Positions 24,426-30,967 of a stretch of 64,000 nt of DNA are shown in pieces; the first letter of the stretch is position 1, and the number at the start of each line of letters is the position of its first letter. The DNA lies in IMG/VR virus record IMGVR_UViG_3300037312_000330, positions 32,001-96,000 of that record; one strand, written 5' to 3'. Under the pieces are notes generated by a model that was not told where the DNA came from, did not search any database, and saw only the letters and a program-made list of their open reading frames with translations. Source of the DNA: a virus (lineage: Duplodnaviria; Caudoviricetes). Both the position numbers and the translations under genes were made by a program.

Positions 24426-25031
24426 CTAGTTAGTGTACTTCCGACGATTCACTCGTTCTGGAAGCATCTGAAGATTGCGACGATGCGCAGTTCTTTCAGG
24501 GGGCCACCCCTTGAGAAATGCTGCGTAGATACTTGTCCTATGATCCATGTGCCATTCCATCCCACGAAGCCTGAATGGATCTATCTCGTCTCTATGTTCA
24601 CGATAAATATCGTTTGAGAGACGACGTACCAACTTTGAATAGGCTTTCCATTCTTCTTCAGGGAAGTCTGCTTTGACATACTCTTCCCTTAGTTTCCCGC
24701 GAGTGTTGTAACGGATAGTCTTGCAACCAGCTTCTTTGACCCATTTGTATATCGTAGGCCAAGATGCAGTAACTCCGTATTCGTGCATCCGTTTTGGAAC
24801 AATGCCCTTCTCATAAAGTTCAATCGCACGTTGCTTCTCTGAGTCAGAGCGCCAGCTGAATTTCGGGACAAGTTCCTTCTGACCTAACGCTCTATTCAAA
24901 TAACCGCGACCGACACCTGTTGTCCTGCACGCCTCGGTTTTGGTTCTACCACTTGCAACCATTTCAACTGCTCTCTTTACTTGAGAAGTTGAAGGAGGTT
25001 CATATTGATTGTTACCGAGCTTTGTAGACAT
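24426..25031 (-). mobile_element. Free-standing HTH-HNH homing endonuclease between sheath and tube genes
   Basis: Two HTH-like repeats, then WHMDH...NLQML...NRRK. Confidence 0.75.
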
Positions 25032-25090: not shown

Positions 25091-25114
25091 GAATTACTCC
25101 TGTGTTCTGTCAGG

Positions 25115-27771: not shown

Positions 27772-28482
27772 TTAGGGCTTGGTGACGATATCGTCAGCAG
27801 AAGCCGCAATACCTTCAACATCAGGCCATTTGTTTTCGAAGACGAACACTTGGACAGCTTCATCATTGTCTTGATTCAGAGCCTTGATTGCGCCTTCCAC
27901 ATCCAACTCTGTGACCGCTTGCGAAGTACTGAGATCATCGCTCATATACCCGTTCACAGTCATGTTGGCAGTCATCATGTATTCTTTGACCTCGGTCAGA
28001 CCACCTTCCCGTGGTGGCACCGACAACTGCTTGTCCAGCTTCACGTCAATGTCGATAGGACCCACTCCGTAGTTGACCGTGAACTTCATTCCACTAGCTG
28101 TAGCAGAAGTGATAAGCCATTTCTTGGACAAGAGCCGCAAGGTTCGCATGTCCTGTACGTATATCTCTACCTCGAATGTGGTAGTGACTGGGATCAAGCT
28201 CAACTTGTAGGTCAGCGTGTTATCATGACTGGCCTGTCCATGCAGACCACGACGCGCTAGCGTGTTTGGCTTGTAGGACGTTTCATTGAGCGCGAATCCT
28301 GAGGTTCTTGCCCGAGCGAATGGATACATGTCTTTCGTATCCGTTCTCTTAAGCCTATTCGCCACGACCGCCTTGACGTCCGGACCGTTGTAAAAGAGCA
28401 GTGGCACTCCGAAGACTTTGTAGAAGCGCTTCGAAAGTCCTGTGTTGATGTAGTCCTCAATCGGACTTAGGCTGTTATCCAC
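27772..28482 (-). CDS. Neck / tail-terminator-like protein
   Basis: 236 aa, GTG start with AGGAG; between MCP block and sheath. Confidence 0.5.
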   Translation of the reverse strand: MDNSLSPIEDYINTGLSKRFYKVFGVPLLFYNGPDVKAVVANRLKRTDTKDMYPFARARTSGFALNETSYKPNTLARRGLHGQASHDNTLTYKLSLIPVTTTFEVEIYVQDMRTLRLLSKKWLITSATASGMKFTVNYGVGPIDIDVKLDKQLSVPPREGGLTEVKEYMMTANMTVNGYMSDDLSTSQAVTELDVEGAIKALNQDNDEAVQVFVFENKWPDVEGIAASADDIVTKP

Positions 28483-28593
28483 TTAGTCTCCTTTGGAGGG
28501 CCGAAACAACGACGGGACTCCAACCGCCTCCGAAAAGGCGTTTGCGAGTCCCGTGTTGATGAAGTCCTCGATAGGATTCAGCGAATTGTCCAT
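28483..28593 (-). pseudogene. Duplicated 5' fragment of the neck gene (36 codons) containing a terminator-like hairpin
   Basis: MDNSLNPIEDFINTGL vs MDNSLSPIEDYINTGL; nested stems GGGACTC/GAGTCCC and CGCCT/AGGCG. Confidence 0.75.
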
Positions 28594-28670
28594 CTTGGTG
28601 TAGCCCTGTGCACAATCGCCCCCACGATCCGGACGTTGACACCCGGTGTGCATGGAGGCGTTTGCAGGTC

Positions 28671-29835: not shown

Positions 29836-29864
29836 AAAAAGTGGGTGACTACGTGTCACCCACT
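29836..29864 (-). terminator. Rho-independent terminator after MCP
   Basis: AGTGGGTGAC-loop-GTCACCCACT followed by TTTT. Confidence 0.8.
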
Positions 29865-30930: not shown

Positions 30931-30967
30931 TGATTACTCCTGTGAGATGTTATGGGCTAGCTTCTGA

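Follow-up and report, generated by a model that had tools for sequence, protein, structure and literature searches.

Free-standing homing endonucleases of the T-even phages, such as Seg and Mob, spread by 'intronless homing', in which the enzyme cuts the nuclease-less allele of a co-infecting relative and the flanking DNA is co-converted. In these classical cases the nuclease gene is intergenic or divides a gene into two halves that are both expressed, and to our knowledge a duplicate replacement gene start has not been described among them. Leader-peptide attenuators and translationally coupled upstream ORFs combine a short translated ORF, a strong hairpin and a stop codon that abuts the start of the regulated gene. 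At the yeast FBA1 locus, WHO ('weird HO') elements make a cut in the gene and exchange its 3' end for a copy that resists cleavage (Coughlan et al. 2020; PMC7282813). The displaced original end stays behind as a fragment and doubles as a homology arm; both WHO genes and fragments can later decay or be lost by deletion (PMC7282813). For phages, Barth, Dunham and Seed (2023) described HEG islands in which small ORFs are fragments of adjacent essential structural genes, proposed to be substrates for homing recombination (PMC10055350).

The window analysed here is a stretch of 64,000 nucleotides, positions 32,001-96,000 of the 248,884-bp metagenomic phage record IMGVR_UViG_3300037312_000330. In it, a 36-codon leader ORF sits directly in front of a gene for a putative tail terminator and repeats the start of that gene. 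We read the leader and the respelled start of the working gene as the scar left by a homing cassette of the end-replacing type after loss of its nuclease gene, a reading to which we assign a probability of roughly three in four. Nuclease genes between or within phage genes are shared with the T-even Seg and Mob systems, from which the locus differs in its duplicate replacement gene start. As with WHO elements (and, more broadly, the fungal mitochondrial mobile endonuclease ORFs, which give rise to hybrid genes), a gene end appears to have been replaced and the old end stranded beside the full gene. Unlike the yeast case, the host is a phage, the replaced end is the 5' end rather than the 3' end, and the nuclease family is DUF7487 (PD-(D/E)XK-like) rather than the intein-derived LAGLIDADG family of WHO. 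The window site further departs from WHO in that the nuclease gene is absent and the fragment still carries a conserved RNA hairpin and has an open frame that runs right up to the new start. With the HEG islands it shares small ORFs made of essential-structural-gene fragments, which were mentioned there in passing for ICP1-like phages; a nuclease-less scar, a respelled replacement start and a retained RNA structure set the present site apart (PMC10055350).

The window phage is distantly related to Ralstonia phage phiRSL1, BcepSauron and Motura, and its clade is placed among the phiRSL1-like jumbo phages. A blastn search with 3 kb of the locus against 50,697 phage records returned no match, and a scan of genome contigs found no relative. 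DNA-level comparison was made with six relatives (L002, L003, L006, L007, L008 and L009); the three closest relatives by protein (P0002-P0004, 77-82% identical) are not among these six. The features discussed below are as follows.

30930-29875, minus strand: major capsid protein gene, a late gene
29804-28671, minus strand: gene for an acidic 377-aa head-module protein, the next late gene after the capsid gene
28594-28670, minus strand: intergenic region from the acidic 377-aa gene to the leader, with a variable hairpin and the native ribosome-binding region (AGGG)
28593-28483, minus strand: leader ORF, 36 codons plus TAA, in which codons 1-30 are the native start of the tail-terminator gene, left stranded
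28507-28558, minus strand: hairpin of ~23 bp inside the leader ORF, from folding and kept in relatives
28503/28504, minus strand: putative insertion junction, after ...GTTGTTT (codon 30)
28483-28503, minus strand: 21-nt linker CGGCCCTCCAAAGGAGACTAA, with the Shine-Dalgarno sequence AAGGAG (28488-28493) and the leader stop TAA
28482-28393, minus strand: first 30 codons of the working gene, respelled by codon comparison with relatives
28482-27772, minus strand: putative tail-terminator gene, 236 aa, GTG start, from AlphaFold/Foldseek and gene order
between the tail-terminator and sheath genes, minus strand: 125-aa gene, placed by late gene order
27063-25138, minus strand: sheath gene, a late gene
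25031-24426, minus strand: endonuclease-like gene, 201 aa, between the stranded tube start and the tube gene
24414-23905, minus strand: tail-tube gene, full length with a respelled start

A Pfam search with the 236-aa protein gave no match. Structural modelling was more informative: the AlphaFold model (pLDDT 72.6) was matched by Foldseek to the tail terminators of P1, T4 (gp15) and T5 (p142), with E-values of 1.6e-8 to 4e-4 and a probability of 1.0. The individual matches were P1 8jan_A (E 1.6e-8), T4 gp15 in 9mkb and 4huh (E 3e-8 to 1e-6) and T5 p142 (E 1.4e-4). The gene lies two genes upstream of the sheath gene, just before the sheath and tube genes, as expected of a tail terminator. On its predicted fold, the product is a T4 gp15-like tail terminator; an earlier note on this DNA had called it the neck gene, for which the Foldseek matches and the gene order provide the better name. 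A deeper branch of the tail-terminator family (L003:4001-4897, L008 and P0017-P0024) carries a C-terminal extension of ~60 aa (...FVYT...VTVxD...), which is absent from the window's clade.

The leader opens with an ATG at 28593 (-) and runs for 36 codons to a TAA at 28485-28483, directly followed by the GTG of the 236-aa gene at 28482. It repeats the first 30 codons of that gene with synonymous recoding, the two copies having 57/90 nt and 19/30 aa in common; over codons 2-16 they differ by 10 synonymous and 2 replacement changes. The 3' end of the leader carries AAGGAG 5 nt before the GTG (AAGGAG-N5-GTG). Between leader and working gene there is no endonuclease ORF, the 21-nt linker alone being present. 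Every feature that the earlier note described is present. Since an endonuclease gene is absent between the fragment and the full gene, the window holds at most a scar and not an active element. A scan of the 249-kb phage genome (312 long ORFs) for upstream copies of a gene's own N-terminus returned two strong cases only, the leader site (E 1e-11) and the tail-tube site (E 2e-9), so the duplication is not a chance resemblance. Among shorter proteins, a search for other stranded N-terminal fragments gave one contig-end piece of 116 aa and nothing else.

Comparison with the relatives indicates which of the two copies is native. The uninterrupted gene without a leader, the 'empty' allele, is found in five of the six (L002, L003, L006, L007 and L008). 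Over 51 nt, the leader is identical to L006 (51/51) and nearly so to L002 and L009 (48/51 each); the working gene reaches 36/51 to both L006 and L002. Among 23 homologous proteins, the first 16 residues of the leader equal the family consensus, and the working gene has Y11, found in no other homologue, and S6, found in one. Homology between the leader and its relatives stops exactly after ...GTTGTTT (codon 30), and the linker that follows has no homology to the relatives' gene or to their upstream sequence. Because the relatives' starts match the leader and this homology ends at codon 30, the leader is the phage's original tail-terminator start, cut off and stranded after codon 30, and we read the linker together with the working gene's first 30 codons as the insertion. 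The earlier note implied the opposite direction, with the leader as the altered copy; the match to L006 and the consensus residues make the leader the native sequence and the working start the respelled import.

The respelling is extensive. Working gene start and relatives have identical codons in 32-41% of cases, against 79-85% among the native starts of L002, L006 and L007. Within ~15-18 nt on either side of the site equivalent to the junction, the working gene start differs from the clade at 9 synonymous sites. These include codons 31-36, which lie outside the duplicated block, with the altered spelling probably reaching as far as about codon 37 (28372). A tract of this kind fits an imported, putatively cut-resistant sequence better than it does a simple tandem duplication. 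A length of 90 nt is too short to tell a foreign origin of the working start from respelling in place once constraint was relaxed. Over codons 18-37, identity between the working gene and L008 is 80%, compared with 53% for the gene body, in a short conserved region where other pairs reach 68-73%.

The sixth relative provides what appears to be the filled allele. Downstream of its capsid and acidic-protein genes, L009 (IMGVR_UViG_3300004800_000845) has a 32-codon ORF, MDNSLNPIEDFINTGLADRFYRVFAVPLLF plus LS and a stop. This fragment and the leader part from the intact alleles at one and the same nucleotide, ...GTTGTTT being followed in L009 by CTGTCATGA, and the fragment is undecayed. The TGA of the fragment shares bases (ATGA) with the start codon of a further ORF, which extends for at least 173 aa up to the contig edge and has a GC content of 44%, against 55% in the flanks. 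The ORF scores 67.8 bits against Pfam DUF7487 (cut-off 27), the contig ending before the C-terminal part, and matches PHROG 3339 and 12131, both labelled 'homing endonuclease'. Its relatives are scattered over unrelated phages and giant viruses; a literature search found no mention of DUF7487. The contig ends inside the nuclease gene, upstream of any replacement start. The window phage has a DUF7487 paralogue of its own (346 aa, 122 bits), with an overlapping C-terminal TnsA-like PD-(D/E)XK domain at 26.0 bits, just under the 26.5 cut-off. Thus, a search for relatives with an endonuclease at this site, which the earlier note had proposed, located one at the identical junction after codon 30 and lends support to the lost homing element that the note had offered as one of two alternatives. 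Taken at face value, these sequences present empty, filled and scarred alleles of one site, of which the window would be the scarred form.

Two other end-duplications in the same genome are linked to nuclease-like genes. At the tube site, 3.5 kb away, a 19-codon stranded tube start (25090-25031, -) ends in a TGA that overlaps the ATG of the 201-aa endonuclease-like gene. The order is stranded start, nuclease-like gene and full tube gene with a respelled start, all on the minus strand. Fragment and working tube gene share 42/57 nt, fragment and L002 46/57, and working gene and L002 40/57. The nuclease-like gene itself (24426-25031, -) has weak matches only, to helix-turn-helix profiles (E 1e-3 to 1e-1) and to PHROG 'endonuclease VII' (E 0.08); its HNH assignment comes from motif reading, without a profile match.

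The third end-duplication lies outside the window, at genome C1 ~227265-228709 (L010:1042-2486), and concerns a 3' end. A 135-aa gene ending in ...CCKHLYTLGVKLIGNGKVD* is followed immediately, on the opposite strand, by a 346-aa DUF7487 / TnsA-like nuclease gene, and an orphan 3' fragment ending in ...EHLYELGLKLIQKGKVD* lies beyond the nuclease gene at ~L010:1093-1143(-). Judged by this arrangement, the site looks like a WHO-like 3'-end replacement with the nuclease present, a mirror image of the leader site. Together with the tube event, this duplicated gene end next to a DUF7487 nuclease bears out the suggestion of a recurrent mechanism. Elsewhere, at genome C1 131381-131659(+), a small gene has its last 26 residues (DPALGYTENGPCTWCNGTGKDMTKVF) repeated ~250-330 nt downstream as DPNLGYADNGPCPWCEGTVEDKTKVY. 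No nuclease lies between these repeats, which may be either a nuclease-less end scar or a small tandem paralogue.

We propose that the cassette would have consisted of a nuclease gene and, probably, a cut-resistant replacement gene start, inserted at the tail-terminator gene. The nuclease's cut in the native allele would fall immediately 3' of the hairpin, and donor-templated repair would copy the cassette in and strand the recipient's own start. The nuclease gene would later have been deleted, or would never have been co-transferred, leaving the linker behind as a presumed remnant of the cassette. Neither a nuclease gene nor a recognisable nuclease remnant was found at the leader site in the window. 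The linker was also considered as the remnant of a nuclease C-terminus (...PSKGD*), an idea that was dropped after comparison with the C-termini of 30 DUF7487 relatives and the phage's own paralogue gave no match. The leader is probably still translated from its native initiation region, and ribosomes that terminate at its UAA would reinitiate at the adjoining start codon (UAA-GUG), with AAGGAG taking part. The stranded copy retains the hairpin element, with a more stable inner stem, and the imported coding copy is without it.

The same arrangement could in principle have arisen with no homing element, by a 111-nt tandem duplication in place or by an illegitimate recombinational join, at the head/tail boundary, of two co-infecting relatives; synonymous sites of the downstream copy would have drifted once the upstream copy had taken over a nucleotide-level function. 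Such an origin would account for the absence of a nuclease gene from the leader site, for a leader plus linker of exactly 111 nt with the copies in frame, and for an N-terminal protein identity of the working gene to its closest relatives (~81%) that matches the whole-gene value (~82%). It sits poorly with a break at the very nucleotide at which the nuclease is inserted in L009, and the 21 nt before each start are not recognisably homologous. Moreover, the respelling runs past the duplicated block into codons 31-37, and the same genome holds two other nuclease-linked end duplications. On balance we consider an origin of this kind improbable.

The leader contains a strong hairpin with an outer stem ACGGGACTC/GAGTCCCGT, an inner stem CGCCTT/GAGGCG and a UUCG loop. 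The structure is well supported by folding: over the 61 nt from 28560 to 28500, the folding energy is -33.2 kcal/mol (z = -5.5), with 0/200 shuffles as good, and the 131-nt context has z = -4.8. The equivalent region of the intact starts, and of the L009 fragment, folds at -29.7 (L006), -29.1 (L007), -27.2 (L009 fragment), -25.4 (L002) and -24.0 kcal/mol (L003), with z from -4.1 to -6.7 in these five. L008 (-13.8 kcal/mol) and the working gene (-12.2 kcal/mol) have no significant structure, with z = -1.2 in both. RNAalifold gives one hairpin of 23 pairs, 4 of which are kept by compensatory changes on both sides. Sliding the partners in the eight-sequence alignment lowers the share of paired cells from 86% to 35-48%. 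For covariation, 20/500 shuffles reach the observed score, a modest support from few sequences (six relatives with DNA). An Rfam search gave no match at E up to 1.

The hairpin is thus real, as the earlier note had it, though not a product of conversion of the leader: a newly evolved feature of the fragment was rejected on finding the same hairpin in five relatives, which makes the structure ancestral, with only its inner part re-made and strengthened. The native gene start is also constrained in its codons. Across L002, L006 and L007, identical residues have identical codons in 79-85% of cases in codons 1-37 and in 47-51% elsewhere in the gene (p 1.6e-3 to 2.6e-5), and the working gene start, at the 32-41% given above, shows no such excess. 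General conservation of codons at the 5' ends of late genes was rejected as a cause, no significant excess being present in the capsid, acidic-protein, 125-aa, sheath and tube genes. An overlapping ORF was likewise rejected, no alternative or antisense frame being open with a start in all relatives. Since the hairpin is conserved and the synonymous excess is not explained by other frames or by a late-gene trend, the native gene start carries a nucleotide-level element. The homing-endonuclease site coincides with the 3' edge of this element.

Differences between the leader and L006 are clustered, with 10/21 nt changed in the inner stem and 2/69 nt in the flanks (p 3e-6). The inner-stem changes raise stability above that of every candidate ancestor, a result equalled by 0-13/2000 random substitution sets at the same positions. 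Uniform neutral decay of the fragment, against which the earlier note had set its reading, is rejected by this clustering and by the stabilising direction of the changes. The changes may reflect either selection for the hairpin after its release from coding or a single templated quasi-palindrome mutation in a young scar. A donor copy of the inner hairpin with up to 2 mismatches was not found elsewhere in the genome.

What the hairpin does at present is a separate question from the origin of the leader, and its candidate roles may be transcription attenuation, an RNA processing or stability site, or none. It is quite possible, at somewhat less than even odds, that the leader is a neutral and fairly young scar with no role, its flanks looking conserved because little time has passed and its inner-stem change being one quasi-palindrome correction. 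The inner arms are near-perfect complements, as a templated event would give, and the undecayed fragment of L009 shows that such fragments can be young. The working gene has a strong AAGGAG of its own and no need of the leader, and the canonical terminator after the capsid gene makes a further attenuator not obviously necessary. Against neutrality, a joint rise in stability from at least 11 differences is rare in the random sets mentioned above; the ATG, open frame, outer stem and U-rich tail are all intact, and the hairpin is under constraint in the relatives' intact genes.

The leader could instead be a working cis-regulator, which we regard as somewhat unlikely. In that case the leader would be translated, and its hairpin would attenuate or terminate transcription, or act as an RNase processing or stability site, at the junction of head and tail modules, with coupling to the GTG. 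Such a role comes near the second alternative of the earlier note, a translation-coupled attenuator that would set head versus tail stoichiometry. The hairpin is conserved and strengthened, the synonymous constraint on the clade's native start is absent from other late genes, the stop abuts the start (UAA-GUG), and every relative, like phiRSL1, has a hairpin or terminator at this boundary. The details fit less well. The stem is followed by CGUUGUUUCGG, or by UUUCGG if the stem extends, in either case a weak U-tract, and a consensus terminator scan of the leader flagged a minor 5-bp alternative stem and nothing else. Rfam provided no known family, and both L008-type relatives and the window's own working gene manage without the hairpin. 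The leader does resemble leader-peptide attenuators in its short ORF, strong hairpin and stop abutting the next start. It differs from them in having no alternative antiterminator pairings, no regulatory codons and a weak U-tract, and in that its ORF is a gene fragment.

RNA structure is recurrent at the head/tail boundary. In the window, the intergenic region 28594-28670 (-) folds at -32.4 kcal/mol (z -2.4), and the corresponding interval before the gene start holds, in every relative, a further hairpin that is different and unrelated. The phage phiRSL1 has a canonical terminator at the same boundary and lacks the coding-region hairpin. A canonical intrinsic-terminator-like site is also present after the capsid gene and before the acidic 377-aa gene (29840-29864, -), with a 10-bp stem containing 6 G-C pairs followed by TTTTCGTT. 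In phiRSL1 (AB366653.2), the annotated TTG start of ORF138 (L094:2441-2560) falls inside a strong terminator hairpin, GGGCCCGGA...TCCGGGCC followed by TTTTT, and family homology begins at an ATG 60 nt downstream; the annotated start is probably too early. The initiation regions of the capsid gene (30931-30950, -) and of the stranded tube start (25091-25108, -) are nearly the same, ACAGGAGTAAT-N3-ATG, and the capsid initiation region with the first ~9 codons is nearly identical in L002 and L009. This motif is probably the clade's strong late translation-initiation signal.

Returning to the proposed homing-cassette scar, the leader site is a further example of an already known type of cassette and, as such, a fairly ordinary scar; the retained, strengthened and clade-conserved hairpin is its distinctive feature. 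The site is a clean and datable case of the remodelling of essential phage structural genes by homing endonucleases that leaves the genes unbroken. It also corrects which copy is which, the odd-looking leader being the native sequence. Small upstream ORFs left by homing events are of a kind that annotation pipelines will miscall or miss.

For the phiRSL1-like jumbo phages, the hairpin is a candidate for regulating expression where head and tail modules meet, and its natural separation in the window phage makes it testable apart from the coding sequence. We tentatively suggest that the first ~110 nt of the tail-terminator gene in this clade double as a cis-acting RNA element, and that the homing event split the two functions, the stranded start becoming a dedicated and now-optimised regulatory leader and the imported start coding free of structural constraint. 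If this is true, partial duplication by a selfish element would have reconciled the competing demands of coding and RNA structure.
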